A stretch of 64,000 nt of DNA from Minisyncoccota bacterium. GTDB taxonomy: Bacteria > Patescibacteriota > Minisyncoccia > Phycocordibacterales > UBA6899. The first letter of the stretch is position 1. Every line of letters begins with the position of its first letter. Made by a program: the position numbers and the translations under genes. Of the stretch, positions 1 to 59,383 are shown in pieces. The notes beneath the pieces are model-generated. The model saw only the letters and a list, made by a program, of their open reading frames with translations, was not told the DNA's origin and did no database searches. Location: the NCBI GenBank assembly GCA_035583355.1, contig DATEZQ010000001.1, forward strand, positions 10,566 through 74,565. Reading direction: 5' to 3'.

Positions 1-316
1 GTCATATATCCTCGACAAGACGCTCCCTGATGGTGCGCATACTGCGTATGTTGCGATGGTGGATAATGGAGGACGCATTCTTGCAAAGTCTGCTCCATTG
101 CCATTTATCAAGGAAGCAAGCGCGTTGACCGTTGAAGCAGCTGGCCTCGGTATCGGTGCGCCTGTTCCTAAGGGTCTTTTCAGTGGCCTTACTCCACTCG
201 CTCTGGTCGCACTTGTTGTTGGCGTGCTTGGTCTTGGACTTTCGGTCATTGGTGCGGTCATCGGTATTAGGCATTCAGGTAAGTCCGCAAACGATTCTGG
301 TCTTAGTGCTAACTAA
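1..316 (+). CDS. 3' end of a CDS entering from upstream; hypothetical protein with hydrophobic C-terminal membrane anchor
   Basis: Frame open from base 2 through the ORF 56-316 without a stop. The C-terminal segment LALVALVVGVLGLGLSVIGAVIG is TM-like. No recognisable family. Confidence 0.35.
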   Translation, partial: SYILDKTLPDGAHTAYVAMVDNGGRILAKSAPLPFIKEASALTVEAAGLGIGAPVPKGLFSGLTPLALVALVVGVLGLGLSVIGAVIGIRHSGKSANDSGLSAN

Positions 317-318
317 AT

Positions 319-1695
319 ATGCAATCCCCAAACTCATATATGAAGAGTGGTGTGCAGTTCGTTCGAGATAACCCTCAGCTTCTGTATACACTTTTCTTGC
401 TCGTTATTATTCCAATGGCTTTCGTTATTTCGAGCGAACAGTTTCTTGGAATTGCGCGAACTCAAAATGATAAGGCGGAGCAAGCGCGCGTCGGGCTACT
501 GCACGACGCGTTTGCTGCGTTTTTGCCAACTCAATTCGAGCCTGCGCTGATAGACGAGCATATCCGAAAGATTGCAGAGAAGAATGAGACAATCACCGGT
601 TTTGCAGTGCTCGAGGAATTGGAATCCGCAACAAGTTCCACATATCAAGTTGTTGGGTCGCTCAACAAGCAGGAGATTCCCCTGGGGGAATATCTTCCTG
701 ATCCGACGACTGCAGCACTTATGCGTTTTGCGCTTGCAAATCCAGATCAATCACTTACGTTGGAGTTTACAAAGAGCGCAGTACGGCAATGGAAAACTGC
801 TCGTGTTATTCCACATCCTCATGATGGTGTTGCGCGTGCCTATGTAGTTACTGATGTCTCAATGTCGCAGAGCGATGCAGTATTGCAGGGTAACATTCGC
901 GCTGCATATGCATCACTTGCACTCATTATTGCGCTTATTATTGTTTTGCTTGCGCGGCAGGCTCGCATCGTTGATTACGCGACACTCTATAAGAAACTTG
1001 AAGAAGTGGACAAGATGAAGGATGACTTCGTTTCTATGACTGCTCACGAGTTGCGCTCGCCATTAACGACCATCCGTGGCTATGCAGATCTGCTTAAGGA
1101 GGTACAGCATCTTTCACCCAAGGGTGAGGAGATGTTGTCGAACATCGATAGGTCTGCTCGCGACCTAAACGATCTGATCACAGACATCCTTGATGTCTCC
1201 AAGCTGCAAGAGGGACGAATGTCATTCAAGCTTGCACCACTTGCACCGGTTGCTGAATTGCGTGATGTTGTAGAAGCATTTAGAAAGCCTGCCGAAAGCA
1301 AAGGACTGACAATTGGACTCACTGTAGGAACATTGCCCGATCTCATGGTGGATAAAATGCGATTTCATCAAGTGCTTGTAAATCTAGTGGGAAATGCAGT
1401 GAAGTATACACCGAAGGGAAGCGTGACTCTTTCTGCTCGTTCAATCGATAGTGCGCATATGTGTGAGTTTCGCATTTCTGATACAGGTCTTGGTATCAGT
1501 GCCGAGGCGCAGCAAAAACTCTTTTCAAAATTCTACCGCGTAAAAACGAAAGAAACGGAGATGATTACAGGAACCGGACTTGGATTGTGGATTACCGCTG
1601 AAATCGTCAGGCAAATGCACGGAACCATTGCTGTAGAGTCTATCGAAGGTAAGGGTACTGACTTCATTGTCCGTTTCCCGATTGCGAGTGTATAG
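319..1695 (+). CDS. sensor histidine kinase
   Basis: HisKA motif MTAHELRSPLTTIRGYADLL, an HATPase_c region (GLGLWIT...GKGTDF) and an N-terminal TM segment. Confidence 0.85.
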   Translation: MQSPNSYMKSGVQFVRDNPQLLYTLFLLVIIPMAFVISSEQFLGIARTQNDKAEQARVGLLHDAFAAFLPTQFEPALIDEHIRKIAEKNETITGFAVLEELESATSSTYQVVGSLNKQEIPLGEYLPDPTTAALMRFALANPDQSLTLEFTKSAVRQWKTARVIPHPHDGVARAYVVTDVSMSQSDAVLQGNIRAAYASLALIIALIIVLLARQARIVDYATLYKKLEEVDKMKDDFVSMTAHELRSPLTTIRGYADLLKEVQHLSPKGEEMLSNIDRSARDLNDLITDILDVSKLQEGRMSFKLAPLAPVAELRDVVEAFRKPAESKGLTIGLTVGTLPDLMVDKMRFHQVLVNLVGNAVKYTPKGSVTLSARSIDSAHMCEFRISDTGLGISAEAQQKLFSKFYRVKTKETEMITGTGLGLWITAEIVRQMHGTIAVESIEGKGTDFIVRFPIASV

Positions 1696-1735
1696 TCAAT
1701 AATATTGATGTTTTAAGCCATATTTTGTTCAGTCG

Positions 1736-1760
1736 GGAAGCCACCACTTTGGTGGCTTCC
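1736..1760. other. 10-bp stem hairpin (ggaagccacc/ggtggcttcc) after the kinase gene, followed by a TATAAT -10 box at 1765-1770
   Basis: Perfect inverted repeat read directly. There is no T-run, so it may not be a classical intrinsic terminator. Confidence 0.4.
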
Positions 1761-1830
1761 ATGCTATAATGCCCTTGGGTTTCTAGATACTTGAGCGACA
1801 TTTTAGCAGTAACGTTGTTATCTATACCGT

Positions 1831-2211
1831 ATGTGCGAACTTAAGCTGATTGAGATTACTGAGCACCCAATTACTTCTACATTTGAAATCTATGCTAAAG
1901 GGGAACGTGTAGGTAGGTGTATGCTTCATCACGAAGCACGCAGCGAATCGCATCTCCCTGAGGGATTTTCTGGACATATTTTCTACGAAATATTTGAGCC
2001 TTTTCAGGGCAAGGGATACGCAAAGGCAGCTCTTGAGAAGCTCGTCGTTGCTGCGCGTCATATCGGTCTTCCTCGCGTGTTTGTGGTCGTAAGTGATGAG
2101 AATGTTCCATCACAGAAAGTCATTGAAGGGCGAGGGGCACAGCTCATTGGTGCCACGATGGGAAGTGATGGTCGTTATTATCGTCGCTATGCAATAGATT
2201 GTAATAAATAA
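1831..2211 (+). CDS. GNAT-family N-acetyltransferase-like protein
   Basis: QGKGYAKAALEKLVVAARHIGL resembles the GNAT acetyl-CoA binding motif. Length is 126 aa. Confidence 0.6.
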   Translation: MCELKLIEITEHPITSTFEIYAKGERVGRCMLHHEARSESHLPEGFSGHIFYEIFEPFQGKGYAKAALEKLVVAARHIGLPRVFVVVSDENVPSQKVIEGRGAQLIGATMGSDGRYYRRYAIDCNK

Positions 2212-2235
2212 AACACCACATTGTGGTGTTTTGTT
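2208..2235. terminator. bidirectional intrinsic terminator between convergent genes
   Basis: Hairpin aaaacaccac-att-gtggtgtttt flanked by A-run and T-run. Confidence 0.7.
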
Positions 2236-2237
2236 TA

Positions 2238-3248
2238 TTAGACTGGCGTTGCGACAAAATCCGTTGGTTTCTCAGCGAGATATTTTTCTAGTTGAGGGCG
2301 TGTGAGTAGTCCCTCCTGAGCACCGATATACTGCACGACCGACATCGAATTGATTGGGCCCCAAAGGAGTGCTTCTTCGAGTGGTAGTCCGAGTCCGAGT
2401 GCAACGACGATTGTGGAAGAGCATGCATCTCCAGCACCAGTGCGATCATATGGGGGTTTTGGATCTGGGTATGGTGGCACGAACCAGGTCTTGTCCACAT
2501 CTGCATCATAAGCATAAAGTCCTTTTGGTCCATCGGTGATGACCGCGATGCGCGGGCCGATTGCGGACATCATCTTCGGGAGTTTTGACGGATCCTTCTC
2601 GTTGGTTTTCAGGATGATACGGGCTTCATCAGTATTACAGAAGAAGATAGAGCACGATTGGTACAGTTCCTTGAGTTTCTCGGCTCCAAGCTTGATCTGG
2701 AACGTACCTGGCTGGAAGGCAAACTTTACACCAGGGTGTGCTTTGATATAGTTCAGCACTTCTTCGTGATAGGGGAGTGAGTTTTCACCGAGGGAAGAGA
2801 AGTATATCCATTTTGGTTGTTCGAATGCCGGAAGTTTGTAATCGAAGGTCTCATGTTTGATGAGAATTGTGCGTTCTGCTTTGAACCAGAGCACGTAGTG
2901 ATAGTTTGATGACTTTCCTGGATTAACGCGAACCATATCGGTGTTCACGTGATCGTGTGCAAGTGCAGCGATGATCTCCTTTCCCTGAGCATCCTCGCCA
3001 ACATCAGCGATCAGTGCAGAAGAGAGTCCGAGACGTGCTGCGCAGACCGCAGCATTTGCTGAGTTACCGACTCCCGGTATTACCTTAGCAAATTCATAGG
3101 GAATCTTTGCTCCGTTAATGAAGCAGAGATCTTGCTCTGTCTCACCAGCTTCACCCTCGATAGTGTGCACAGAAGCCTTCTGTATGCGAATAAATGCGTC
3201 AGTGACTGTGTCTCCAATAGCCACGAAATCAAAAGATTTTTGTTCCAT
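2238..3248 (-). CDS. PfkB-family carbohydrate/ribokinase-like kinase
   Basis: The C-terminal DRTGAGDA motif and the N-terminal GxGG region are typical of the ribokinase/PfkB superfamily. Confidence 0.8.
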   Translation of the reverse strand: MEQKSFDFVAIGDTVTDAFIRIQKASVHTIEGEAGETEQDLCFINGAKIPYEFAKVIPGVGNSANAAVCAARLGLSSALIADVGEDAQGKEIIAALAHDHVNTDMVRVNPGKSSNYHYVLWFKAERTILIKHETFDYKLPAFEQPKWIYFSSLGENSLPYHEEVLNYIKAHPGVKFAFQPGTFQIKLGAEKLKELYQSCSIFFCNTDEARIILKTNEKDPSKLPKMMSAIGPRIAVITDGPKGLYAYDADVDKTWFVPPYPDPKPPYDRTGAGDACSSTIVVALGLGLPLEEALLWGPINSMSVVQYIGAQEGLLTRPQLEKYLAEKPTDFVATPV

Positions 3249-3316
3249 CAGGAAATTATAGCATAAATTGCATATGCACTACTTACCACTTTCCACTTTC
3301 TTGCTATAATAAAGGC

Positions 3317-4360
3317 ATGAATATTGTACAGCTTGAATCCGTTGCACGAGCGCTGGTCGCACCAGGAAAGGGAATCCTTGCCGCTGATGAATCAAGTGCA
3401 ACTGCCAATAAGCGTTTTGCCGCAGTCTATGTCACTCAAGATGAAGACCACCGTCGCACGTTCCGCGAGATACTTTTGACGACTCCTGATGCAGTCGGTA
3501 TCGTCTCAGGCGTGATCTTTTATGACGAAACATTCTGGGAGAAGGGTTCTTCGGGTGAGCTTTTTCGGGAATATTGCGCAAAACATGGAATAATCCCCGG
3601 CATAAAGGTGGATGAAGGTCTTACTGATCTCCCGGGTTTCCCTGGAGAGAAAGTCAGTAAAGGTCTCGATACTCTTCCTGAGCGTATACAGAAATATGCT
3701 GAAGCGGGTGCTCAGTTTGCGAAGTGGCGTTCCGTCATTGTCATTGGTGAAAAAATTCCTACTGATGCTTGTATCGCTGCGAACGCGTATGTGCTTGCGC
3801 GTTATGCTCGAATCTGTCAGGAGGCGGGTGTAGTGCCTATCGTTGAGCCTGAAGTGCTCTTTGATGGCAAACATACTTCCGAGCAATGTGAGGCTGTGAC
3901 GAGTCATGTTCTTGAGACACTCTTTGCCGCAATGCGTACCTACCGTGTACATTTCCCTGGTGCGATATTGAAGACAGGTATGGTCCTTCCAGGAAAAGAT
4001 TCTGGTATCCCTGTTGATGAGACTGATGTTGCAGATCGTACGGTGCGCACTTTGCGTACCCATGTGCCTCATGATATTGGGGGTGTGGTATTCCTTTCGG
4101 GTGGTCAGACACCACATCAGGCCTTTGCGAACTTGAATGCGATCGCGCAGCGTGGTCCACATCCTTGGGGATTGACCTTCTCTTATTCACGCGCACTTCA
4201 GGATCCAGTGTTGAAACATTGGGCAGTACATCAAACAGATATCGTCGGAGCGCAGTCGATTTTTGCACATCAGCTCAAGGTTGCACAAGCAGCACGATCG
4301 GGAAGTATGAGTGTGGCGGCGCATAGTGATGATTTCGTTTCCCACTCCCAAGACATGTAG
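3317..4360 (+). CDS. fba: fructose-bisphosphate aldolase, class I
   Basis: N-terminal GKGILAADES signature and overall class I aldolase similarity. Length 347 aa. Confidence 0.85.
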   Translation: MNIVQLESVARALVAPGKGILAADESSATANKRFAAVYVTQDEDHRRTFREILLTTPDAVGIVSGVIFYDETFWEKGSSGELFREYCAKHGIIPGIKVDEGLTDLPGFPGEKVSKGLDTLPERIQKYAEAGAQFAKWRSVIVIGEKIPTDACIAANAYVLARYARICQEAGVVPIVEPEVLFDGKHTSEQCEAVTSHVLETLFAAMRTYRVHFPGAILKTGMVLPGKDSGIPVDETDVADRTVRTLRTHVPHDIGGVVFLSGGQTPHQAFANLNAIAQRGPHPWGLTFSYSRALQDPVLKHWAVHQTDIVGAQSIFAHQLKVAQAARSGSMSVAAHSDDFVSHSQDM

Positions 4361-4569
4361 AAAACCGCATATTTCGGCGCATCTTGCCATGCTTCGGCGT
4401 GCGACTCGCTCACCGTAGAACACCTACGGCTCGCTAGAGTTCGCATACCTCCAGCATAGCAACCTGCATCCGAAATCTGCGTTTTTTTGTTATCTCAAAT
4501 ATATAAATCGAATACTGAAATATTTAAATATTTAAATATGTATTGGATTGCGTAATTAAAAAACCAAGA

Positions 4570-4737
4570 TCAACTGATCTCGGTATCTAGAGTAGGGGTC
4601 GCATCTGGAGCTGCACTGAAGACGCGGATTTGTCCGCAGCCTTTACATTTAATTTCCACCGTCGCCTCGACAAGATTGCCCTTGAAGAGCAATTTTCCGC
4701 AAGAACATTTGTGATTTTTGAGCTCTGTATCTTCCAT
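4570..4737 (-). CDS. small zinc-ribbon protein (Com-like CxxC...CxxC), 55 aa
   Basis: Translated manually as MEDTELKNHKCSCGKLLFKGNLVEATVEIKCKGCGQIRVFSAAPDATPTLDTEIS. It falls below the ORF-track length cutoff. It is divergently arranged with the Cys-rich gene at 4900. Confidence 0.45.
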   Translation of the reverse strand: MEDTELKNHKCSCGKLLFKGNLVEATVEIKCKGCGQIRVFSAAPDATPTLDTEIS

Positions 4738-4899
4738 GTTCATGAGTGTGCTCGCGTGCTAATAATATATACTATACCATCATATAGTAGTAAGACCTAT
4801 GCAGTCTGTGCACAGTTTTTGCACAGTAAGTGAGTGGGGGTCGACAAAAGCCATATTTTGATGTAGATTAAGTCCTCGTTCTTTTCTAAGGAGGTTCTT

Positions 4900-5400
4900 T
4901 TGAACCACGAACCACTCGTTGAAAGTTTTCCTTGTGTCGAACCTGGCTGTGAAGGCCTTGTCGACCCCTGCTCTGAGTTGGCCATTCGGCTCAACCCTGA
5001 GAAGTACGGCACCAAGAAGGGTGTTTGCTGCAATAGCTGCGCTCGCCTGTATGGAACGGATGGAGAGCCTGTGCTCAATATCGAATTCATGAAGGTGTTC
5101 ATTGCTGGCGGTAGACTCGAAGGCAGGGTGCTCACTGCAGTCGAAAAGTGCAATCTGGTCCGTAATGAGATCGGCAAGATGTGCGATGCTGAAACTCATG
5201 AGGAGAAGGAAGCGCATCGTCGTAATATCTTCGCGCTCTGCGGGGGAGAAGAAGCCTTCCTCGATAAGAAGAAGAGCATGGAGGGACATACGGCTGACTG
5301 CGAAGCAATCGAATACCGTGCGCCACACATGTGCAGCTGCGGTGTCACGCACACTCGTAACTGGTTCAGGGATCACGCGGATATGGCTGGAGAAGCCTAG
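4900..5400 (+). CDS. cysteine-rich hypothetical protein (TTG start)
   Basis: Strong SD aaggagg 6 nt upstream of the TTG at 4900. Several CxxC/CxnC clusters. Followed by the terminator at 5407. Confidence 0.55.
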   Translation: MNHEPLVESFPCVEPGCEGLVDPCSELAIRLNPEKYGTKKGVCCNSCARLYGTDGEPVLNIEFMKVFIAGGRLEGRVLTAVEKCNLVRNEIGKMCDAETHEEKEAHRRNIFALCGGEEAFLDKKKSMEGHTADCEAIEYRAPHMCSCGVTHTRNWFRDHADMAGEA

Positions 5401-5406
5401 CATTTT

Positions 5407-5440
5407 ACCACCCCCCAAAAAAATGGGGGGTGGTTTTTCT
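5407..5440 (+). terminator. intrinsic terminator
   Basis: accacccccc-aaaaaaat-ggggggtggt followed by a T-run. Confidence 0.75.
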
Positions 5441-5481
5441 TTTCCTTTTGCCTTATGTCTGTCTTTTGCTATACTGGTCAA

Positions 5482-6726
5482 ATGCGACAATCCCAATTAT
5501 TTACAAAGACGCGCCGAGAGGCGCCAAAGGACGAAGTAGCGAAGAACGCACAGCTTTTGCTGCGCGGTGGCTACATTTACAAGGAGATGGCAGGTGCATA
5601 CTGTTATCTCCCCATGGGATTGCGTGTGCTCAATAAGATCATGAACATCATCCGCGAGGAGATGGATGGTATTGGTGCACAGGAAATTCTTATGACCTCA
5701 TTGCAAGACAAGGCAATCTGGGAAGCAACCGGACGCTGGAGTGATGATGTTGTCGACAATTGGTTTAAGACGAAATTGAAGAGTGGTACTGAGGTTGGTC
5801 TTGCATTTACTTGTGAAGAGCCACTCACGAATCTCATGCGCGAGTATATACACTCACACCGCGATCTCCCAATGGCCGCATATCAGTTACAGACGAAGTT
5901 TCGCAATGAAGCACGTGCAAAGAGTGGTATTATGCGTGGACGCGAGTTTATCATGAAGGACGCCTATACGTTCTGCAAGAATGTTGAGGAGCACAATGTG
6001 GTCTACGAGCAGTATGCGGAGGCCTACATGCGCATCTTCACTCGTCTTGGACTTGGCGAGCTCACCTACAAGACATTTGCATCAGGCGGTTCATTTAGTA
6101 AGTATTCTCACGAATATCAGACAATCACGGAAGCCGGTGAGGATACTATCTTCATTAGTGATGAGAAACATATCGCAATCAATCATGAGGTCATGAATGA
6201 TGAGGTGCTCGCAGATCTCGGCGTGAAGCGTGAGGAGCTTCGTGAAGCTAATGCAGTTGAAGTGGGAAATATTTTCACCCTCGGCACTAAGTTCTCCGAT
6301 GCATATGATCTGAATTATGTGGACGAAGAGGGTCATCCTCAGCGAGTCTTTATGGGTTCGTATGGAATTGGGCCTGGGCGCGTCATGGGAACCATTGTTG
6401 AGGTACTTTCAGATGAGAAGGGTATCATATGGCCAGAATCGGTTGCGCCATTTATGTTCCACCTCATTGCGCTTGGTTATGATGATCCTGCGGTCAAGGA
6501 AGAGGCGGATAAGCTATATCATGCACTCCGCGCTCGTGGCATTGAAGTACTTCTTGATGACCGAGTTGGCCCTTCTGCGGGAGAGAAGTTTAATGATAGT
6601 GATCTTCTTGGTATGCCTAAGCGTGTCGTTGTTTCAAAGAAAACTATTGCCGCAGGAATGTATGAACTCAAGGATCGTAAGACTGGTGAAGTAAGTCAGA
6701 TTTCTCACAGTCAGCTTCTTGCATAA
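5482..6726 (+). CDS. proS: proline--tRNA ligase (short form lacking the editing insertion)
   Basis: MRQSQLFTKTRREAPKDEVAKNAQLLLRGGYI and class II aaRS motifs. I chose the internal ATG at 5482 as the start. Confidence 0.9.
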   Translation: MRQSQLFTKTRREAPKDEVAKNAQLLLRGGYIYKEMAGAYCYLPMGLRVLNKIMNIIREEMDGIGAQEILMTSLQDKAIWEATGRWSDDVVDNWFKTKLKSGTEVGLAFTCEEPLTNLMREYIHSHRDLPMAAYQLQTKFRNEARAKSGIMRGREFIMKDAYTFCKNVEEHNVVYEQYAEAYMRIFTRLGLGELTYKTFASGGSFSKYSHEYQTITEAGEDTIFISDEKHIAINHEVMNDEVLADLGVKREELREANAVEVGNIFTLGTKFSDAYDLNYVDEEGHPQRVFMGSYGIGPGRVMGTIVEVLSDEKGIIWPESVAPFMFHLIALGYDDPAVKEEADKLYHALRARGIEVLLDDRVGPSAGEKFNDSDLLGMPKRVVVSKKTIAAGMYELKDRKTGEVSQISHSQLLA

Positions 6727-6920: not shown

Positions 6921-7973
6921 ATGTTAATGGACCGCTTTCTTGGCTTTTCTGGCGCAGATATTGGTATCGATCTTGGTACGGCGAATACACTCGTCTATCT
7001 TCGTGACCACGGCATAATTATTGATGAGCCTTCGGTGGTTGCGGTCAATCAGAAAACGGGACGCGTTGTTGCGGTGGGTAGTGATGCAAAGCAGATGCTC
7101 GGGCGTACGCCAGGGCACATTGTTGCTATTCGTCCACTTGTAGGGGGAGTGATTTCTGACTTCGAGATTACTGAGGAGATGCTTGCACACTTCATCAATA
7201 AGGCGCAGCGACTTTCGAAGAAGCAGGGTCGTCCACGCGTTGTGATCGGTGTTCCAACACTTATCACTAATGTGGAGACGCGAGCGGTTCGTGATGCTGC
7301 GATGAATGCAGGTGCACGAGAGGTCTATATTGTCGAAGAGCCCATGGCTGCAGCGATTGGTATTCGACTTCCTGTCACAGAGCCTGTGGGTTCGATGATC
7401 ATCGATATTGGCGGAGGCACAACTGATATTGCAGTCATCTCTCTTGCTGGAATTGTGAATGCGAAGAACCTTAAAATCGCAGGGGATCGTTTCAATTCAG
7501 ATATTTCTTCATATATTCGGGATGAATTTAAGATTCTTATTGGTGAACGTACGGCAGAGGAGGTAAAGATTAAGATCGGTACTGCTACAAAGCCGAAGGA
7601 GCCTCGTGAGGCGGCAATTCGTGGACGCGATTTGCTCACCGGACTTCCACGTGAGGTAATCGTGACGGATATCGATCTCCGCGAAGCCCTCGCACCATCT
7701 CTTGCTGCGCTCGTTGAGGCGACTAAGGAAGTACTTGAGACGGCCCCACCAGAAATTCTTGCCGATGTGATGCATCGAGGAATCGTTATCGCAGGTGGCG
7801 GTGCACTTATTTATGGGTTGCCGGAACTTCTTGAACTCGCATTACATATTCCCGTCGTTACCGCAGATGAACCACTCACCGCAGTAGCACGTGGAACAGG
7901 TATCATCATTGAAAATTTGGATATGTATCGCGAAGTGCTCATCGAGCATGATAACGAACTTCCATCACGCTAG
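6921..7973 (+). CDS. mreB: rod shape-determining protein MreB
   Basis: Actin-like ATPase motifs (DIGIDLGTANTLVY, IDIGGGTTD) over the full length. Confidence 0.9.
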   Translation: MLMDRFLGFSGADIGIDLGTANTLVYLRDHGIIIDEPSVVAVNQKTGRVVAVGSDAKQMLGRTPGHIVAIRPLVGGVISDFEITEEMLAHFINKAQRLSKKQGRPRVVIGVPTLITNVETRAVRDAAMNAGAREVYIVEEPMAAAIGIRLPVTEPVGSMIIDIGGGTTDIAVISLAGIVNAKNLKIAGDRFNSDISSYIRDEFKILIGERTAEEVKIKIGTATKPKEPREAAIRGRDLLTGLPREVIVTDIDLREALAPSLAALVEATKEVLETAPPEILADVMHRGIVIAGGGALIYGLPELLELALHIPVVTADEPLTAVARGTGIIIENLDMYREVLIEHDNELPSR

Positions 7974-29920: not shown

Positions 29921-30217
29921 AAGATGCTAGAGAGTGATACGCAGAGATATCTCACGAGCTTTGCTCGCGCACCCTAAAGGGGCCCGCACGGCCAGGCTCC
30001 TCGATTTCATTACATGAACGGTACACCTTTTGGACCTTTTGTATCGAAGACTCACAAAAGTCCTCAAAAGGTCTTGCTCTCTCGCTCCCATAAGAATGGG
30101 ACCCATGAGCAAGAGCTCACCCACGGTTCTCGACGGAACCTCTTCGAGGTTCCTGCTTTCCTCCACGGGAGAGGTGTCCCTCTCCCGACCCCTTCTCCGT
30201 TCGATTCTCTGTAGGGA
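29921..30217. ncRNA. candidate structured RNA/repeat element R1, paired with R2 at 52722-52884; strand not determinable
   Basis: Aligns to the reverse complement of 52722-52884 with conserved blocks and compensatory changes: GGAACCTC-TTCG-GAGGTTCC here vs GGAG-cctacaaga-CTCC there. Other shared helices are cgggagagg-tgtc-cctctcccg and the GCTTTGC helix, here carrying a ~170-nt insertion. The termini CAGAGA...TCTCTGTAGGGA copy the T-stem and acceptor of the adjacent tRNA-Glu. Confidence 0.4.
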
Positions 30218-30269
30218 TTCACAAAATAGAAAAACCTCCCAAGCTTTGCTTGAGAGGTTTTTCATTTTG
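30218..30269. terminator. bidirectional terminator at the centre of a ~45-bp-arm inverted repeat that includes the tRNA-Glu 3' end
   Basis: aaaaacctcccaagc-tttg-cttgagaggttttt. The arms extend outward to gttcgattctctgtaggg on both sides. Confidence 0.65.
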
Positions 30270-30341
30270 TGACCCTACAGAGAATCGAACTCTGATTTAA
30301 GGCTTGAGAAGCCTCCGTCCTAACCGTTAGACGATAGGGCC
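30270..30341 (-). tRNA. tRNA-Glu (anticodon CUC)
   Basis: Manual cloverleaf of GGCCCTATCGTCTAACGGTTAGGACGGAGGCTTCTCAAGCCTTAAATCAGAGTTCGATTCTCTGTAGGGTCA. 7-bp acceptor, D and T arms, anticodon loop TTCTCAA. CCA is not encoded. Confidence 0.8.
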
Positions 30342-30614
30342 AGTCGCTGCGCGAACCAGGCTGGCCATTTTGCTAGAGGAATCGGCCACCGCCGATACAT
30401 TTCCTCGCGCCTTTCTCGCAAAACCTCGTAAGGCTGTCGCAATAGGGCCAATGACATTTCTGAGTTCTTGCTAGTCTGTTTCCTTTCTCACAGAGCCCCG
30501 AAGGGCTTTGCAATAAGGGTTACGGGCAACCACAATTCAGCAGAAAAGTGATCAGCTCGTTCGAATATCATAGCAGATTATTCAAGTTTGTAAAGTGCTA
30601 AAAGGGGTGTAGTA

Positions 30615-52274: not shown

Positions 52275-52413
52275 AAGTATATTCTAACATGGGGAAGAAA
52301 GTCGAAAGTAAAAAATGAATAATTATACAAGAGTCTAGTAATCTTATTATATTTGTGATATAACAGGACAGTTCAAATAGAATTTAAAGGCAGGAACTGC
52401 TTAGATAATTGAA

Positions 52414-52596
52414 TATTACGGGATCGTCTAAAGGTAAGAATAGCCCTATGGGCACCAGGTATTCTTGCCCGATAGAGAGTCGCCACCGCGACCCTGATCA
52501 ACTCACGCCTTCGCAGGCTCAGTCGTTCACGGGTAGGAAAGAGGCCGGCCTCCGTCCGGCTCTCCGTAAGTATTGAATTGTTTTTAAATATAGTAT
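52414..52596 (+). repeat. partial duplication of the tRNA-Gln 5' region followed by a ~155-nt structured pseudo-tRNA-like segment
   Basis: tattacgggatcgtctaaaggta at 52414-52436 is identical to 52594-52616, the start of the true tRNA. The downstream part contains a T-arm-like GCCGG-CCTCCGT-CCGGC and CTCCGTA. Confidence 0.55.
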
Positions 52597-52667
52597 TACG
52601 GGATCGTCTAAAGGTAGGACAGAGGCCTTTGAAGCCTTTAATCTTGGTTCGATTCCAAGTCCCGTAG
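52597..52667 (+). tRNA. tRNA-Gln (anticodon UUG)
   Basis: Manual cloverleaf of TACGGGATCGTCTAAAGGTAGGACAGAGGCCTTTGAAGCCTTTAATCTTGGTTCGATTCCAAGTCCCGTAG. Anticodon loop CTTTGAA. CCA is not encoded. Confidence 0.8.
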
Positions 52668-52721
52668 CAATGGCCAAAAAGAACGCGAAAGCGTTCTTTT
52701 TGTTTGCCATTGCTAACGGGA
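52668..52721. terminator. bidirectional terminator at the centre of a ~43-bp-arm inverted repeat that includes the tRNA-Gln 3' end
   Basis: aaaaagaacgc-gaaa-gcgttcttttt. The arms extend through agcaatggcc/gccattgct to ttcgattccaagtcccgt on both sides. Confidence 0.65.
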
Positions 52722-52884
52722 CTTGGAATCGAACGGAGAGGGGTCGGGAGAGGAATACCTCTCCTGTGCAGGAAAGCAGGAGTCTTGTAGGCTCCGTCGA
52801 GAACCGTGGGTTCTTGAAGAGCTTTGCTGTGCGAGGCTCCTCTGGAGTGCGCACGCAAAGCGAGTGAGATATCCAAGCCCCATA
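52722..52884. ncRNA. candidate structured RNA/repeat element R2, paralog of 29921-30217
   Basis: Conserved blocks with R1 (see R1). Terminal helix GGGGCTTGG/CCAAGTCCC, or GGGACTTGG/CCAAGCCCC on the other strand. The termini copy the tRNA-Gln T-stem and acceptor. Confidence 0.4.
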
Positions 52885-53005
52885 GCAGTTTGAAGAAATT
52901 TCTGTTTCGGAACACGGCACATCAATGTAACACATTGATTAGTACAATTTTTACACTATGTGATACTATATGTGTATTTATGTAACTAATAATGAATTAA
53001 GTAAT

Positions 53006-54772
53006 ATGCAGCAAAAACAAGAATTCGCTTTGCGTAAACTAGAGGAAGAAATTTCCGCTAAGATCCTATCCGTTTCGCAGCAAGTCCGAACCGCAAGAAC
53101 AGCTGAACAGTTTTTTGATTTGACATGCGAGCTCTATGCAGTGGTTGAAAAGATGAAAAATGAGAATCTGCTCTGGGTCGGTAATAAAACAAATTACCCA
53201 GTTCTGTTTTTGAGTGCGGTATTGAGAAATGAGACGATTCAGAGAGAGTTGATAAGGGTTACTGAGGAGGAAGAAGGAATATATGATCAAGCCATCATCT
53301 CAAATACAAATCTTGAGTCCAAGCTATTAATACGAACATCATTACTGTTAGCATTCATGCCAATAGCAGTTGGGTTAGAATCTCTAGAGGAGGTGAATAT
53401 AGTTTTCTATAGAAAGGTTATAAATGATGCACTTAAGGAGGCCATCAGAAATTCGCAATCAAATATTTCTATAATTAGCGTCTGCTTTAAGATTGAAGGT
53501 ATTATAAAGACAAAAGATTATTTTCATGGAACATCTTCATTACTAATAGATGTTGGCGCTTTGTTCGAAGTATTAAAACTGTCAAGAATTTTATGTGGGA
53601 TATCGTCCGCGGCAATGCCAGTTACGCAAATATTGGCAGCACAGTTTTCCAAGTCAAATGAAAAAATTCTGTCATTTGAACTAAATTTGTCCGAAATCCT
53701 TTCAAGTGTTTATAGTTCAATTTTCAAAGTTAGTCGCAGTATTGAATATTATATAAACACTCCTGTTGACGAAAGCTCAATTCGTGAAGTTGGAAGGTAT
53801 AGTGATTTGTATCAAACTTCAAACGAAAAAAACCTAATTTTCTTTCTGGAAAAGATCTCTTCAGATTTTAACTTCCAAGAGGGTAGGAGATTTTATGAAG
53901 TAATGATCTCAAAAATTAGTTCAGCCGATTCTCTTCGACTTGAGTTGGTGGATTTTGCAACAAAACACCTTAGCGGATTCCGCGGTGATATAAGCGAGGA
54001 TCATGGTGAGTGGTCGAATAAGGTATTTATTACTTCCCTTAGACTTCTATCAGTTCTGTCTGTGATAAATTTAGCAAAAGATTCGAGATGGAAAGTGTCT
54101 ACGTCGGTTAGGGAGTATGTAAGATGGCTTGAGGAAGTTCATGGAATAATTAACAAATATTCTCTTGAGGATGACTGGTCTGCTATTTCTGATTTTGTTG
54201 ATGATGAAACGTCTGAGATTGAATGGAAGTCAACATTTTTTACACCAACAGAGCAAATGTATTCTTCTAAAGAATCAGATTCTTTAGTTAGTAGAAGTAT
54301 ATTTGGCAAAATATCAAAAACAGTATTGGGGATGATGAATACTTCAGGCGGAACTATTCTCGTTGGACTTGTAGAAAACCCGAAATTAATCATACGAGCT
54401 GATATTTCCGAGAAGTTAATATGCAAAAATGGAAAAACATTTTATGATGTCGGTTATGAACTAAGTCAGATTGGTAGGTCTCTTGATAGTGTTAGGCTTC
54501 AAATGCTTGAAAATTTGAAGAATATGACGGATGAGTCATCGGAAAAATTTAATGATCTTTTCACATTTATTCCTTTGCAAATTAAGTCGGGAGGCGCTTC
54601 GGTTACAATTGTAAAAATTCAGATTAAAAAAGGGGCTAGAAAGTTCTATTCAGTTAAAAAAGAAAATAATTCAGTTTGGATTTCTCTAGCAATGCGTGCT
54701 ATGGGGCAGACGATAGATGTAGATGTCAGGGATTACCTTCCTGAAGGAGATATAGAAAAGGCTCAGGATTAA
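53006..54772 (+). CDS. large hypothetical protein with Schlafen/AlbA_2-like domain, in an AT-rich island
   Basis: EIEWKSTFF...VLGMMNTSGGTILVGLVEN resembles the AlbA_2 (PF04326) signature. About 400 aa of N-terminal sequence has no known domain. Local GC is visibly lower than the flanks. ATG at 53006 is preferred over 52970. Confidence 0.55.
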   Translation: MQQKQEFALRKLEEEISAKILSVSQQVRTARTAEQFFDLTCELYAVVEKMKNENLLWVGNKTNYPVLFLSAVLRNETIQRELIRVTEEEEGIYDQAIISNTNLESKLLIRTSLLLAFMPIAVGLESLEEVNIVFYRKVINDALKEAIRNSQSNISIISVCFKIEGIIKTKDYFHGTSSLLIDVGALFEVLKLSRILCGISSAAMPVTQILAAQFSKSNEKILSFELNLSEILSSVYSSIFKVSRSIEYYINTPVDESSIREVGRYSDLYQTSNEKNLIFFLEKISSDFNFQEGRRFYEVMISKISSADSLRLELVDFATKHLSGFRGDISEDHGEWSNKVFITSLRLLSVLSVINLAKDSRWKVSTSVREYVRWLEEVHGIINKYSLEDDWSAISDFVDDETSEIEWKSTFFTPTEQMYSSKESDSLVSRSIFGKISKTVLGMMNTSGGTILVGLVENPKLIIRADISEKLICKNGKTFYDVGYELSQIGRSLDSVRLQMLENLKNMTDESSEKFNDLFTFIPLQIKSGGASVTIVKIQIKKGARKFYSVKKENNSVWISLAMRAMGQTIDVDVRDYLPEGDIEKAQD

Positions 54773-54807
54773 ATATTTATTATATTCGTGTTACAATTCG
54801 AAGCAAT

Positions 54808-55122
54808 ATGGCGATGATAAAATGCACAGAATGCGGAAGGGATATTTCAGACCAGGCGTCTACTTGTCCAGCTTGCGGCATACAACTAAAGGAGATCGCA
54901 GTAGAGACGACTAAACCTGTGACAATAGAGTTGACTAGTAAGAAGTGGAAGGTGATAAAGCTTTTTGCATGGCCAGCAGTGATTCTTGGTTTCCTTTGGT
55001 ATATATCAGGAATGCAACAACCTGTACCCCCAACTTCTTCAGGGGTTGGTGCAATGTTCCTCTTTTTTGGAATAATCGGATTAATAGTTGCAAAGCTTGG
55101 AGCTTGGTGGACAAATAAATAA
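54808..55122 (+). CDS. zinc-ribbon membrane protein (104 aa)
   Basis: CTECG...CPACG ribbon followed by two TM helices. Confidence 0.45.
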   Translation: MAMIKCTECGRDISDQASTCPACGIQLKEIAVETTKPVTIELTSKKWKVIKLFAWPAVILGFLWYISGMQQPVPPTSSGVGAMFLFFGIIGLIVAKLGAWWTNK

Positions 55123-55128
55123 TTTCTT

Positions 55129-55389
55129 ATGAAAACCCGCATTACCCTCATCTCCGCATTACTCCTCCTTCCAATGATTGCCTCAGCATTCACGCTTTCC
55201 GACGTGCAGAACTCTGACTTCTGGCCGGGATTCTGGCAGGGACTTACCTTACCATTCCGTCTCTTCTTGCGCTTCTTCATGCATGATCTCGTTATCTTCG
55301 AGCCCGCACGCGCTATCTGGTGGTACCACGTCGGATTCCTCGTAGGAGTCTTCGCAATCTTCACCGGAGGACATCATTCAGCAAAATAA
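55129..55389 (+). CDS. small secreted/membrane protein (86 aa)
   Basis: Signal peptide plus a TM helix. Confidence 0.4.
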   Translation: MKTRITLISALLLLPMIASAFTLSDVQNSDFWPGFWQGLTLPFRLFLRFFMHDLVIFEPARAIWWYHVGFLVGVFAIFTGGHHSAK

Positions 55390-55420
55390 AACATCGGCCA
55401 CTAGTGGCCGATGTGTTTTG
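55386..55420. terminator. bidirectional terminator
   Basis: aaaacatcggccactagtggccgatgtgtttt. Confidence 0.75.
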
Positions 55421-56074
55421 TTATTGCCGTGAGCTCACGGCCGCCGCGCATTCGTAGATGCGCATTTCATGCGGGGAAAGAGCGAAATCGTCGAGTGTGA
55501 GGCCAAGGTGTCCGAGCATTCTTGCTGTCTCTTTCTTGAGACCTCGTCCGAGATTTTCTTTCACGTAATGTTCGATGATGGAAGGCTGGATGGGGAGGAC
55601 TCCGAGGTTGGTAAATGCGTGAACCTCGGATTCCTCGATTCTGTTGCGGGACACGTGTCTTTCGAGGATATACTGCGCTTCTTCCTTGGTGAGTTCACGT
55701 CCGAGGTGGGCAGCATAGAGTTGTGCGTAGCGCAGTGACCCTGTCCCCACGGCCCAGACGAGGAGTTCTTTGTGGAAGCAGCGAGCTTCATTCCCAGAGT
55801 AGCGCTCAGCGAGGGTAATTATGCTCGCCCAATGCTTCCTCATGGAATCCTTGATGATCGTTCTTGCGATCTGCTCCATCTGTTGGGCAGGAAGTTTCAA
55901 CTCGAAGATGCGCTTGATCGCGAATTCGAAATTAAGCTTTGCGAGTCCAAGCATGAACATCGTCAGTATCGTGGTGAACACGAGATTCTCCTTGTGGTTA
56001 TCGTCTGGTCTCTTTATACAATATTCAAATATGATTGTCAAATATACTTTTTCGAGCCCACAAATATAAAACAC
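55421..56074 (-). CDS. hypothetical alpha-helical protein, downstream partner of the SLOG-like gene
   Basis: Coding-like. No family recognised. The start may be internal. Confidence 0.4.
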   Translation of the reverse strand: MFYICGLEKVYLTIIFEYCIKRPDDNHKENLVFTTILTMFMLGLAKLNFEFAIKRIFELKLPAQQMEQIARTIIKDSMRKHWASIITLAERYSGNEARCFHKELLVWAVGTGSLRYAQLYAAHLGRELTKEEAQYILERHVSRNRIEESEVHAFTNLGVLPIQPSIIEHYVKENLGRGLKKETARMLGHLGLTLDDFALSPHEMRIYECAAAVSSRQ

Positions 56075-56090
56075 CCCTCAGGGTGTTTTA

Positions 56091-56621
56091 TTATTCCGCG
56101 ATTGTATATTGCTTATGTAGCGTAATCGGTAATCCCGCAGCCTTTGCTTTATCAATCGTGTCTTGTGTTCCTGAACTCGCATTCACCTGGAATGCATAGA
56201 CTTCATCGGCAACCTTCACTTCACCGTCATGGCGAAGGTTATAGTGCTCCTGTGTAATTTCTCCATCCTCAGGGAGTGCATGCACATGCTCGGGCTTTGC
56301 GCGACGCAAAAGCTTGAGGCAAGTGGCAAGTTCATCAATTGATTCTTGTGTCACTGGCGCATGGCACCAATTCTCGCGATAGTCACGAATGTAGTTCTTG
56401 AGATTCGTGGGCAAGAATACTTGTAGCCTTTCGCCTGAAGGATCATACTCCATCGCTTCCGTCATGGCGAAATAATCAACACCCGTTGCTCCGCCAGTGA
56501 TGATGCCATCACCGCGTTCGAGTACTTCTTTGGCTGCATTACGAACATCCTCCTCAACCTGCTTATTGGTAAGTCTCCAAGTTCCCGTAAATAGTATCCA
56601 ATGCATATATTCAATATACAT
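56091..56621 (-). CDS. SLOG/DprA/LOG-like Rossmann-fold protein
   Basis: IITGGATGVDYFAMTEA resembles the GxAxGxDxxA motif of DprA/Smf/SLOG nucleotide-binding domains. I chose the internal ATG (MYIEYM) as the start. Confidence 0.4.
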   Translation of the reverse strand: MYIEYMHWILFTGTWRLTNKQVEEDVRNAAKEVLERGDGIITGGATGVDYFAMTEAMEYDPSGERLQVFLPTNLKNYIRDYRENWCHAPVTQESIDELATCLKLLRRAKPEHVHALPEDGEITQEHYNLRHDGEVKVADEVYAFQVNASSGTQDTIDKAKAAGLPITLHKQYTIAE

Positions 56622-56687
56622 GGTATGAGATAAAGCGCAAAATACAATTTTGTTGTATGAGTTGCAAAACTGTGCGATGATTGTCCT

Positions 56688-57011
56688 ATGTTTACTATCG
56701 AATTCCTGCGTCATTACCGTGTGCTTGGTTACGCCGTATTTGACCTCACCGTGTCATTCCTCGGTATGGCGCTCCTCGCACCCTTACTTTCGCGTATTAT
56801 GCGCAAGCTTGGCTTTATCGTTCCTATGGTGAACTGGGTCTGGATGACGCTGCCGATTGGCATCCTTACGCATCTCATTGTTGGCAGGATGACCCCGATG
56901 ACCGTACAATTTTTGAATCCAAATGGTGACTACGTGCTCAAAGCGATTGTCTTTGTTATGTTTGTCCTTGGGCTTGTGGGTATCAGGCGCGCAAAGCCTG
57001 TGATGCGATAA
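56688..57011 (+). CDS. small membrane protein (107 aa, hypothetical)
   Basis: Three TM helices. Confidence 0.4.
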   Translation: MFTIEFLRHYRVLGYAVFDLTVSFLGMALLAPLLSRIMRKLGFIVPMVNWVWMTLPIGILTHLIVGRMTPMTVQFLNPNGDYVLKAIVFVMFVLGLVGIRRAKPVMR

Positions 57012-57043
57012 AAGTGCGGTATTGTGCGTACTACATATACAAC

Positions 57044-57625
57044 ATGACCACTCCAATAGATTGCACACTGAACTCTGACGAGGAGCTCGTCACACTTGCA
57101 CTCCAGAACTCGGATTGGTTTTTCTGTCTCGCAAAGCGCTATGAGGAAAAGCTTGCGCGTTATATTGCGCGCATTTCAGGTGGTCACAAAGAAGATGTCG
57201 AAGACACACTGCAAGATGTTTTTGTGAAAACATATCAAAACTTGAACAGTTTTGATACACGACTCAAATTCTCTTCATGGATCTATCGCATTGCGCACAA
57301 TGAATCAATAAGCGCAATGCGCAAGCGTTCCGTGCGTCCCGTGGTGCACCTCGAGGATGAAGACATGCAGAAGTTCGCTGGAACACTCGATATTGAGAAG
57401 GATATCAATAATATCTTCGATAGAGAGATCATCAACAGCATCTTGGCACTTATGGATCAGAAGTATGCTGAAGTACTCACACTTCGTTATCTCGAAGAGA
57501 AGGATTACATCGAGATAGCCGATATTCTCCAGAAGCCGATAAGTACGGTGGGGAATCTCATTAGCCGCGGAAAGAAGTTGTTTAAGGTCGAATATGAAAA
57601 TATAACTAACGAAAAACATGGATAA
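57044..57625 (+). CDS. ECF-type RNA polymerase sigma factor
   Basis: Region 2 (FSSWIYRIAHNESISAMRKR) and region 4 HTH (DYIEIADILQKPISTVGNLISRG). Confidence 0.8.
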   Translation: MTTPIDCTLNSDEELVTLALQNSDWFFCLAKRYEEKLARYIARISGGHKEDVEDTLQDVFVKTYQNLNSFDTRLKFSSWIYRIAHNESISAMRKRSVRPVVHLEDEDMQKFAGTLDIEKDINNIFDREIINSILALMDQKYAEVLTLRYLEEKDYIEIADILQKPISTVGNLISRGKKLFKVEYENITNEKHG

Positions 57626-58382
57626 GGATATTGCAAAGAGCGCAATGGAGCGCATAAAGAAACTCGGCATCACTCCTGAGTCAAAGGCCACGGTTATGCT
57701 CCGCAGACTCAAGTTTTGGGCACCGACAATGATTGCAGGAGCTCTTGCTGCGGTTGCAATAGCTGCAATCTATTTTAATTTAGATGGGAATGATTGGGAT
57801 CTTTTTCCAAGGCTTGGCTTCGGATTCATACTGCACTCAGTGCCATATTTCTGGATTGTAGCCTTCGTTATCCTGGTAGTGCTTGGCGACTTCTACTACG
57901 GGAAGACCGAGGTTGGCTATCGTTACAGTTTCGTACGTATTGCGGGGATATTCATACTCGTCACGATGCTCTTCGGTAGCCTCCTCATGTATATGGGTGC
58001 GGGCCGTATTTTCCAACGCTCTATTCGTGGAGGAGGTGGAGTGCTCCAGAATATGATGTTCCAGCAGACTGAAGTCTGGTCACATCCTGAGCAGGGGTTA
58101 CTCGCAGGGACGATACGTTCTGTTGCTGCAACAAGTTTTGAACTTACAGATTTTGAAAATAAAGTTTGGGCTATTGATATGACTAATGCGTTGGTGCGCA
58201 GTAGGGTACAGCTTGTGCCGGGGACATTGGTAAAGATTATTGGGCAAGCGGCTGGTGATCAATTTATAGCCAGTGAAGTCCGTCCGTGGATGGGTCAGGG
58301 AATGATGAATGGTAGCGGGGTTCACGGAGGTATGTTTGGTGGTGCAGTAGGTGGCGCAGGGAGGAAGGGGATGATGCGATAA
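57618..58382 (+). CDS. membrane protein co-transcribed with the ECF sigma (putative anti-sigma-like), Gly/Met-rich C-terminus
   Basis: Overlaps the sigma stop. Four TM helices. The C-terminus is GQGMMNGSGVHGGMFGGAVGGAGRKGMM. Confidence 0.45.
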   Translation: MDKDIAKSAMERIKKLGITPESKATVMLRRLKFWAPTMIAGALAAVAIAAIYFNLDGNDWDLFPRLGFGFILHSVPYFWIVAFVILVVLGDFYYGKTEVGYRYSFVRIAGIFILVTMLFGSLLMYMGAGRIFQRSIRGGGGVLQNMMFQQTEVWSHPEQGLLAGTIRSVAATSFELTDFENKVWAIDMTNALVRSRVQLVPGTLVKIIGQAAGDQFIASEVRPWMGQGMMNGSGVHGGMFGGAVGGAGRKGMMR

Positions 58383-58440
58383 ATTTGTTTTTGATGCGTA
58401 TTAATAGGTGAAGGCCTTAATTAATATAACTTCAATTACA

Positions 58441-58815
58441 ATGAACAAGAAGATCATTACTGCAGGAGTTGCCACGCTTATCTTGGCAGCAGCTGCATCA
58501 ACTGCATTTGCTTATCAGGGTGACGCTACAAAGCGTGGTCCTAATTACTCGCCAGAGCGCCACACTGCAATGACCGCAGCAATCACAAGCGGTAATTACG
58601 ACGCTTGGAAGCAGCTCCATACTGCAGGTACTCGCGTATCAACAGTTATTACCAAGGACAACTTCCCAAAGTTCGTAGAGATGTGGAAGCTTGAGCAGGC
58701 AGGAAAGACTGCAGAGGCTAAGGTCATCAGGCAGCAGCTCGGTCTTGGTATGGGCGCAGGCATGGCAAATGGCCGTGGTCAAGGAATGGGTCGCGGAATG
58801 CATCGTGGTTTCTAG
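58441..58815 (+). CDS. secreted protein with Gly/Met-rich C-terminus
   Basis: Signal peptide MNKKIITAGVATLILAAAASTAFA. The C-terminus is GLGMGAGMANGRGQGMGRGMHRGF. Confidence 0.5.
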   Translation: MNKKIITAGVATLILAAAASTAFAYQGDATKRGPNYSPERHTAMTAAITSGNYDAWKQLHTAGTRVSTVITKDNFPKFVEMWKLEQAGKTAEAKVIRQQLGLGMGAGMANGRGQGMGRGMHRGF

Positions 58816-58835
58816 GCAAATTAACACCCCATAAA

Positions 58836-58866
58836 GAACATACATAACGTATGTTCTTTGTTGTTT
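58836..58866 (+). terminator. intrinsic terminator
   Basis: aagaacatac-ataa-cgtatgttctt plus a T-run. Confidence 0.7.
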
Positions 58867-58889
58867 ACAGATTTAGTTCTTTGGTGTAT

Positions 58890-58911
58890 CATTCAAATGT
58901 ACATTTGAATG
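58890..58911. promoter_or_regulatory. 22-nt perfect palindrome (operator-like) upstream of the rhodanese gene
   Basis: cattcaaatgt|acatttgaatg. Confidence 0.5.
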
Positions 58912-58954
58912 TAATTTGCACGGTAATGGCAAATATTCAGGCAGTTATTAATAT

Positions 58955-59383
58955 TTGAGCTATATGGCAAAGAAAGAGACCAAAGACACAAAGTTCTATG
59001 TGGGGATTGGTATAACCCTTCTACTTCTTATTGCATTGTTCGTGTTTTTCCCAACACAGCGAATGCAATTGTCGGGCAGTGAATTCATGCAGACGTTTAG
59101 TAAGACAAGCGATGCGGTCTTGCTTGATGTGCGCACGCCGACTGAGTTCGCTGCAGGACACATTGATCAAGCGATCAACGTCGACTACGAGGATGCAACA
59201 TTTGAGTCCGAGATCAAGAAACTTGATCCCTCGAAGACATATTTTGTTTACTGTCGCTCTGGTAACAGGTCGGGAAAGTCCATCACTATTATGAGAGCAA
59301 ATGGATTTCAGCATATTTACGAACTTGCAGGAGGAGTCGTAAGTAGTAAAGATTCGATAAAATTGATTCCTTTGAGTATTTAA
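58955..59383 (+). CDS. rhodanese-domain protein (membrane-anchored)
   Basis: LLDVRTPTEFAAGHI and the active-site CRSGNRS. Confidence 0.8.
   Translation: MSYMAKKETKDTKFYVGIGITLLLLIALFVFFPTQRMQLSGSEFMQTFSKTSDAVLLDVRTPTEFAAGHIDQAINVDYEDATFESEIKKLDPSKTYFVYCRSGNRSGKSITIMRANGFQHIYELAGGVVSSKDSIKLIPLSI

Follow-up and report, generated by a model that had tools for sequence, protein, structure and literature searches.

Why would a bacterium carry a second copy of the beginning of a transfer RNA (tRNA) gene just upstream of the intact gene? The question is raised by a 64,000-nucleotide (nt) stretch of a Minisyncoccota genome (GenBank assembly GCA_035583355.1, contig DATEZQ010000001.1, positions 10,566 to 74,565), here called the window, in which the 23-nt string TATTACGGGATCGTCTAAAGGTA has two exact occurrences, both on the + strand, at 52414-52436 and at 52594-52616, where it heads the genuine tRNA-Gln gene. 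An earlier examination of the letters alone, the sequence-only reading, had noticed this repeat, and it is indeed exact and non-random, with 0 matches expected by chance (100 shuffles, up to three mismatches allowed). With its flanks the repeat covers 33 nt at 88% identity. Copy 1 consists of 3 nt of upstream flank and tRNA-Gln positions 1-20, which contribute the acceptor 5' strand, the D-stem 5' strand and the D-loop, and the direct repeats bracket just 157 nt in the window, all of it non-coding. Copy 1 heads a conserved, non-coding, unclassified element of ~130 nt (52414-52545), which we label U. A second family of structured elements, labelled Y, lies downstream of both tRNA-Gln and tRNA-Glu; the features of the two loci are collected in Table 1.

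U recurs in one other genome. A scan of one genome per species, covering 185,579 species, with the 19-mer ACGGGATCGTCTAAAGGTA matched only the metagenome-assembled genome 'bacterium SKS1.bin43' (L002 below), in which the two matches lie 193 nt apart and U is followed by tRNA-Gln as in the window. The sequence-only reading had allowed for a trivial tandem duplication that relatives would lack; in this relative the duplication is present. L002 is the sole independent second genome found with U; the Logan contig L001 has the same sequence as the window. When metagenomes were scanned with a looser D-arm pattern, 120 tRNA-Gln loci of diverse lineages came up, mostly from groundwater metagenomes, and none had the U core. 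Searches by neighbouring gene added no further U: the loci of eight homologues of the EamA gene beside U in the window (P0001, P0002, P0004, P0007-P0010 and P0012) showed no adjoining U or tRNA-Gln, so the adjacency to EamA is not conserved, and homologues of the 163-amino-acid (aa) neighbour gene in L002 gave copies of Y and no more U. Among the EamA homologues, one at 54% identity bears the name Candidatus Liptonbacteria; taken with the groundwater origin of most of the tRNA-Gln loci, this places the organism probably within the Patescibacteria/CPR. U appears to be rare in the sequence collections that these scans covered.

The tRNA-Gln genes of the window and L002 are 100% identical, and the U core (52417-52544) agrees at 90.6% of 128 aligned columns; BLAST gives 88% identity over 142 nt. 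The DNA on both sides of the core, that is, the DNA before the conserved upstream box and the 48-60 nt separating the core from the tRNA, cannot be aligned, and indels and substitutions accumulate in this 3' spacer only and spare the core. Elsewhere the two genomes are far apart: across eight orthologous genes, identity is 48-86% for the proteins, 85% at second codon positions, 42% at third positions and 38% at four-fold degenerate sites (n=397), values at which neutral sites can be taken as effectively saturated. A core at 90.6% identity against 38% at four-fold sites, set between unalignable flanks, indicates purifying selection on U, and such selection largely rules out a neutrally decaying pseudogene or scar. 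On this comparison, both copies of the repeat are ancestral to the two genomes.

What is conserved does not encode protein. In the sole reading frame open in both genomes every substitution is non-synonymous and none falls at a third position; this shared frame is broken by an indel, and the other frames contain stops. Local helices named in the sequence-only reading are all present in the window: AAGAATA (52436-42) pairs with TATTCTT (52460-66), GTCGC (52479-83) closes over CACC onto GCGAC (52488-92), and AGAGGCCGG (52540-48) forms a helix with CCGGCTCT (52556-63). The first is the sole U helix with a compensatory change, pair 29-47 being A:T in the window and G:C in L002, with the loop going from TAT to TAC. 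In the second, a G to A change in the GCGAC strand of L002 breaks the hairpin on the + strand (C.A mismatch) and leaves a U:G pair on the - strand. At the end of the core both genomes have a short hairpin, but its loop differs (GAGG-CCGG-CCTC in the window, AGAGG-TAAA-CCTCT in L002). The T-arm-like GCCGG-CCTCCGT-CCGGC and the closure of the element by TCTCCGTA, which can pair with TACGG-GA, exist in the window as had been claimed, but fall within the stretch that cannot be aligned with L002. Both genomes nevertheless hold a complement of the 5' strand 23-28 nt before the real tRNA, CCGTA in the window (28 nt) and CTTCGTA in L002 (23 nt); the latter could pair with TACGGG through two G:U pairs, and on the + strand only. 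The overall fold is not unusual (z-score for 52414-52575, -1.6 on + and -2.1 on -). U combines conservation above neutral with one compensatory pair from two sequences and weak thermodynamic z-scores.

Three further observations bear on how U might be made and used. The first is a 22-nt box upstream of U, TGATATAACAG[G/T]ACAGTTCAAA (52356-52377). Its start in L002 is TATGATAT and resembles the -10 region TATGATAT of a promoter-like site upstream of tRNA-Glu; the box is possibly a -10 region with the transcript start. The second is the tRNA-Glu locus itself, where the sequence-only reading had seen a weaker echo of the tRNA 5' end at ~30443-30458. The echo is real, its coordinates having been about 9 nt off (actual 30449-30440): apart from the tRNA-Glu start, this is the one place where the 10-mer GGCCCTATYG is found, against 0.11 expected in the whole window. 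The promoter-like site is strong and of the extended -10 type (TTTACA-16-TATGAT preceded by TG, 30567-30594 on the - strand) and lies ~220 nt upstream of tRNA-Glu. The upstream copy and this site together suggest that tRNA-Gln and tRNA-Glu are both made with long leaders. The third is that in unrelated lineages, too, the real gene is preceded at 50-130 nt by a partial 5' tRNA-Gln copy, the insert differing from one case to the next (L039, - strand view 1687-1770; L116:866-960; L092:1067-1135; L030, - strand view 4420-4445); in L039 the copy forms a perfect 7-bp acceptor stem around an unrelated ~13-bp hairpin.

We tentatively read U, with its upstream box, as a functional non-coding element, likely an RNA running in the direction of the tRNA as a leader or small RNA, that came from a partial duplication within the D-loop. 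A partial duplication of the tRNA-Gln gene with its breakpoint between positions 20 and 21 would have given rise to it. U would be transcribed in the tRNA-Gln direction from a start near the box, and would either stay on the tRNA-Gln precursor as its long 5' leader or become a small RNA, freed by the RNase P cut at the tRNA 5' end. Its acceptor 5' strand and D-arm sequence would make a tRNA-Gln look-alike handle, used for closing U's own fold or for recognition by tRNA-Gln-binding proteins. The exact, non-random repeat, the same layout in L002, the conserved and non-coding core and the A:T to G:C change all argue for this reading, as do the box start shared with the tRNA-Glu -10 site, the 5' copy in the tRNA-Glu leader, the closure complement found in both genomes with its + strand-only G:U version, and the upstream tRNA-Gln copies of other lineages.

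Several points weigh against it. The spacing from box to copy 1 differs by about 36 nt, being 36 nt in the window and 2 nt in L002, and these 36 nt are found in the window only. The folding energy of the core is no better than that of shuffles (z -0.7 to -0.8 on the + strand, -1.3 on the - strand). RNAalifold gives the window/L002 alignment -35.0 kcal/mol on + and -42.9 on -, and some substitutions suit the - strand better. No canonical promoter or terminator conserved between the window and L002 was found on either strand. Finally, there are just two independent U sequences, hence the structural support amounts to one compensatory pair.

Some of these points belong to a different reading, possible but unlikely in our judgement, in which U is a minus-strand small RNA, divergent from tRNA-Gln, that acts by antisense pairing with tRNA-Gln or its precursor. 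The last 20-23 nt of such an RNA would be perfectly antisense to the tRNA-Gln 5' part, and it would head towards a co-oriented next gene, EamA in the window and the 163-aa gene in L002. Folding is slightly better on this strand (z -2.1, -1.3 and -2.2, against -1.6, -0.8 and -0.7 on +); the more favourable alignment fold includes eight one-sided changes, all of which keep pairing via G:U, and the hairpin GGGTCGC-GGTG-GCGACTC accommodates the L002 change on this strand only. With two sequences, however, chance alone would make about half of all transitions wobble-compatible, and RNAalifold tends to choose the structures that profit from them. Nor was a promoter found in the spacer 52546-52593 or a conserved terminator after 52414, and the G:U closure CTTCGTA of L002 functions on the + strand only.

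It is rather unlikely that U acts instead as DNA, as a recombination site or as the remnant or end of a small non-autonomous element inserting into the tRNA-Gln D-loop, whose copy of the tRNA 5' part restores the gene and which is retained since it travels with the tRNA cassette. A discrete insert of 157-170 nt lies between direct repeats, and the 20/21 breakpoint recurs in another lineage, in which a full tRNA-Gln is followed after 48 nt by a direct copy of positions 21-72 (L016:2372-2190 on the - strand; L078:1-180), a mirror image of the duplication in the window with the same D-loop breakpoint. The window and L002 carry the cassette of U and tRNA-Gln in opposite orientations with respect to the genes around it (see below), the Y elements beside both tRNAs also hold tRNA-end copies, and tRNA gene fragments left by integration events are widespread (PMC9897764). 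Against this, of four features of an attachment-site scar, which the sequence-only reading had offered as one explanation, the locus has the direct repeat identical to a tRNA segment (23 nt exact) and lacks the other three: the repeat spans positions -3 to +20 and so copies the 5' end, no recombinase domain was found in the insert or in neighbouring open reading frames (ORFs) of the window, and the sequence is not neutral. Integrating elements are reported normally to duplicate the 3' portion of a tRNA, from the anticodon loop, the T-loop or the 3' end onward. A passive scar would not hold 90% identity where four-fold sites stand at 38%. Phage, plasmid and viral collections offered no match either: in BLAST against phage and plasmid collections the tRNA alone matched, not U or Y, and among the viral contigs scanned the tRNA 5' string and the Y pattern each gave 0 matches and a U 17-mer a single chance match inside a coding region (L123).

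We consider it improbable that U is a DNA regulatory region, a promoter, operator or upstream-activating sequence, for tRNA-Gln and/or the divergent gene. In both genomes U does separate divergent genes and immediately precedes a tRNA gene, and it lacks a strong RNA structure signal; tRNA genes are often strongly regulated. But ~130 nt of continuous 90% conservation far exceeds typical protein-binding sites, the divergent gene is not the same in the window and L002, and the compensatory hairpin change points to a folded nucleic acid. Less credible still is a non-functional leftover, either a decaying tandem tRNA-Gln copy or a neutral attachment-site scar, the two options that the sequence-only reading had offered. 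U and the tRNA do share an identical 5' end, and decaying tandem copies exist elsewhere, such as the upstream copy in L092, of which positions 1-27 and 44-58 survive; in L045 a distance of 329 nt separates two tRNA-Gln genes. The proposal is nevertheless largely refuted by conservation far above neutral, by the loss of all tRNA similarity past position 23, and by indels and substitutions that are concentrated in the 3' spacer and not in the core.

That U is part of an unusual tRNA gene, whether intron-containing, split or permuted, is scarcely believable: a tRNA-Gln 5' piece does lie upstream and a 3' piece inverted downstream, but a complete tRNA-Gln is already there, U has no anticodon arm, and ARAGORN, even with introns up to 300 nt and lowered thresholds, is silent in 52414-52596. 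The same silence extends to all five of its modes (default, intron-aware, lowered-threshold, tmRNA and mitochondrial), and the Rfam tRNA model finds no cloverleaf with anticodon arm and T-arm in this interval at E<=10, which rejects a second tRNA gene, normal or intron-containing. What relaxed ARAGORN reports elsewhere are cloverleaves built on tRNA-derived Y pieces, with mismatches in their acceptor and T stems. Patescibacterial tRNA genes often contain group I introns (PMC13011429); the Rfam group I intron model has no match in U at E<=10, and since the repeat makes both junction bases identical, the exon-U / intron-G (U / omega-G) requirement of group I splicing cannot be met.

Known RNA families fare no better. 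Rfam 15 has no match to 52414-52596 at E<=10, neither transfer-messenger RNA (tmRNA) nor other tRNA-like RNAs of Rfam match by covariance model, and the tmRNA mode of ARAGORN is blank over the tRNA-Gln region. Resemblances to RNase P, signal recognition particle (SRP), 6S and tmRNA seen by eye, such as AGGAAAG, have no Rfam support. We also rejected a T-box-like specifier: TTCAAA (52372-77) and TGAGAA (30490-85) complement the tRNA-Gln and tRNA-Glu anticodon loops, each with a shuffle p of ~0.2, and 28 of 111 other tRNA-Gln loci have an anticodon-loop complement as good or better, the hexamer being no more frequent than by chance.

Table 1. Features of the tRNA-Gln and tRNA-Glu loci (window coordinates)
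Feature	Position	Strand	Remarks
Conserved upstream box TGATATAACAGGACAGTTCAAA	52356-52377	+	21/22 positions identical in L002; neighbouring DNA unalignable
Copy 1	52414-52436	+	Exact 23-nt repeat; also in L002, 193 nt upstream of the L002 tRNA-Gln
Hairpin AAGAATA / TATTCTT	52436-52466		Encloses GCCC-TAT-GGGC; compensatory change
Rest of conserved core	52467-52545		Includes GTCGC-CACC-GCGAC and CACGGGTAGGAAAGAGG; within core 90.6% identical to L002
Non-conserved spacer	52546-52593	+	Holds GCCGG-CCTCCGT-CCGGC and TCTCCGTA (52561-68); no alignment with L002
tRNA-Gln(UUG), genuine	52597-52668	+	ARAGORN and Rfam, 62 bits; copy 2 is 52594-52616
Bidirectional intrinsic-terminator palindrome	52669-52715		Inverted repeats I2 and I5; A-run before stem, T-run after
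Y element, tRNA-Gln copy	52716-52881		Inverted repeat I1; fold z -5.9 and -6.5; covariance model 102 bits
Copy of tRNA-Glu first 8-10 nt, GGCCCTATTG	30440-30449	-	108 nt upstream of tRNA-Glu
Y element, tRNA-Glu copy	29940-30217		After tRNA-Glu (30269-30341, -) and terminator; covariance model 83 bits

The Y elements give a second instance of borrowed tRNA sequence at these loci. The tRNA-Gln copy starts (52716-52734) with an inverted copy of tRNA-Gln positions 54-72, continues into a GC-rich structured core and ends in CCAAGCCCC, which pairs with the start. In the tRNA-Glu copy the start is the tRNA-Glu 3' end in inverted form, and CTCTG at the far end matches the T-stem of tRNA-Glu and not of tRNA-Gln. 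The two are 86.5% identical over 89 nt. Further copies occur in a close relative of the window (L124:865-1040), in relatives of L002 (L136:3775-3960, L137 and L138) and in another lineage, where the ends are tRNA-Gln acceptor strands (L016:1440-1320 on the - strand; L078:655-770). In L136-138, Y stands upstream of the homologous 163-aa gene, at the place where L002 has a reverse-complemented tRNA-Gln and U. An alignment of six Y sequences contains three covarying hairpins, with 86% of cells paired and nine pairs changed on both sides. The paired-cell percentage, the double-change counts and the covariation score were each reached by at most 1 in 500 shuffles and are clearly above slid controls, while the count of further pair types is not above shuffles. 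Counting the wobble pairs of Y gave no preference for the tRNA-sense strand, with 8 G:U cells against 7 A.C cells. Neither Rfam nor the phage, plasmid and viral collections contained a match to Y.

Is U simply a diverged Y? A covariance model of Y (R1), built from hairpins A, C and D and the GTGSAGGAARGCAG linker, scores at best 6.9 bits in U (E=4.1, filters off). This is not a significant match, so U and Y are separate elements, which nonetheless share a design principle, the borrowed tRNA end.

Near-perfect palindromes of ~90-100 nt, at 52642-52739 and 30199-30290, lie at both tRNAs and consist of the tRNA 3' half, the bidirectional terminator and the inverted tRNA 3' half; to these Rfam gives spurious microRNA-precursor matches only. 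ORFs of 180, 138 and 112 aa cross the tRNAs and U/Y (52373-52915, 52519-52935 and 29927-30265, all on the - strand), and the public Logan assembly annotates the 138-aa one as a gene. That none of the three is coding is shown by shifts of frame from one Y copy to another. A search for spurious ORFs over homologues, with six-frame translations of U and Y against a 5.8-billion-protein database, gave no scoring match among its 8,000 candidates. In two distant genomes from which the tRNA is gone, a string of ~24 nt, GTTCCAACTTCATCCCAT[G/A].CC, precedes the terminator and Y (L124:799-822 and L136:3709-3735); it looks like a reshaped tRNA-Gln 3' end, too conserved for a random remnant.

The sequence-only reading had also called the tRNA-Gln locus a recombination hotspot, and comparison bears this out. 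Between the window and L002, the cassette of U and tRNA-Gln is inverted relative to a ~4 kb block of shared genes (window 52412-52670 versus 55129-59265; L002, in reverse complement, 50-5923 and 7230-7501), and two genes show a further local reshuffle. L124, whose EamA is 94% identical to that of the window, has a different gene beside EamA, and the tRNA before its Y is a remnant. Right after tRNA-Gln and Y in the window comes a low-GC segment (52970-55100; 36% against ~46% for the window) that has no counterpart within the 8 kb of L002 examined; its 600-aa ORF matches Schlafen/AlbA_2 below the threshold (24 bits, cut-off 25.3). L016 and L078 carry different islands after their partial tRNA-Gln copy. 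In one relative (L134:932-3090) a large serine recombinase (Resolvase and Recombinase domains) and a ParB_N protein adjoin an EamA homologue, which points to mobile DNA in this neighbourhood within the clade.

Several described systems resemble U in part. Like the partial tRNA genes left as attL/attR fragments, it is a direct repeat of part of a tRNA beside the intact gene, at a variable, island-bearing locus; unlike them, it copies the 5' part, has 157 nt of non-coding DNA between the repeats, lacks an integrase and is under purifying selection. With tRNA-like RNAs, such as the tRNA-like domain of tmRNA, the Y RNA YrlA and the yjdF aptamer, it shares tRNA-derived or tRNA-shaped parts on an RNA that is not a tRNA, but U has no Rfam match, mimics only the acceptor 5' strand and D-arm, has no conserved T-arm and adjoins the very tRNA that it copies. 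The same position and strand are seen in long pre-tRNA 5' leaders and in external transcribed spacers with a small-RNA role, and RNase P could release U from such a precursor; transcription of U, in contrast to theirs, is predicted. To our knowledge, the known leaders do not begin with a copy of their own tRNA's 5' end. T-box leaders are likewise RNA leaders tied to one specific tRNA, but U has no Rfam T-box match and stands upstream of a tRNA gene rather than an aminoacyl-tRNA synthetase gene. Y is similar to U in flanking a tRNA, carrying a tRNA-end copy at one end, having ends that can pair, and lying in an intergenic region upstream of an ORF; it differs in that its copy is of the 3' end and inverted, where that of U is of the 5' end and direct, and R1 does not link the two. 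In concept U resembles tRNA mimics and pre-tRNA leaders, and it belongs to no described RNA family.

A bolder proposal, a long shot in our view, is that U and Y make up an undescribed class of RNAs in Patescibacteria-like bacteria, built on borrowed tRNA ends and hijacking tRNA-recognising machinery for their own processing or for the supply of Gln-tRNA(Gln)/Glu-tRNA. U would then borrow the acceptor 5' strand and D-arm, and Y the acceptor strand, T-stem and T-loop, and candidate machinery would be RNase P, the CCA-adding enzyme, a non-discriminating glutamyl-tRNA synthetase (GluRS) and GatCAB. GatCAB has two identity elements on tRNA-Gln, the U1-A72 pair and the D-loop; the copy of U in the window can form the former and retains the latter.

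For annotation, the locus carries two lessons: public gene calls put spurious ORFs of 138-180 aa over U/Y elements, and partial tRNA copies like U should not be annotated automatically as integration scars. If U is a functional RNA, it would be a tRNA mimic right beside the tRNA that it copies, in a poorly known and probably ultra-small, Patescibacteria-like lineage with few protein regulators. Glutamine and glutamate tRNAs are the pair served by one synthetase and the amidotransferase pathway, and U, together with covarying Y elements at both tRNA-Glx loci, would then suggest that control or processing linked to these two tRNAs is RNA-based.

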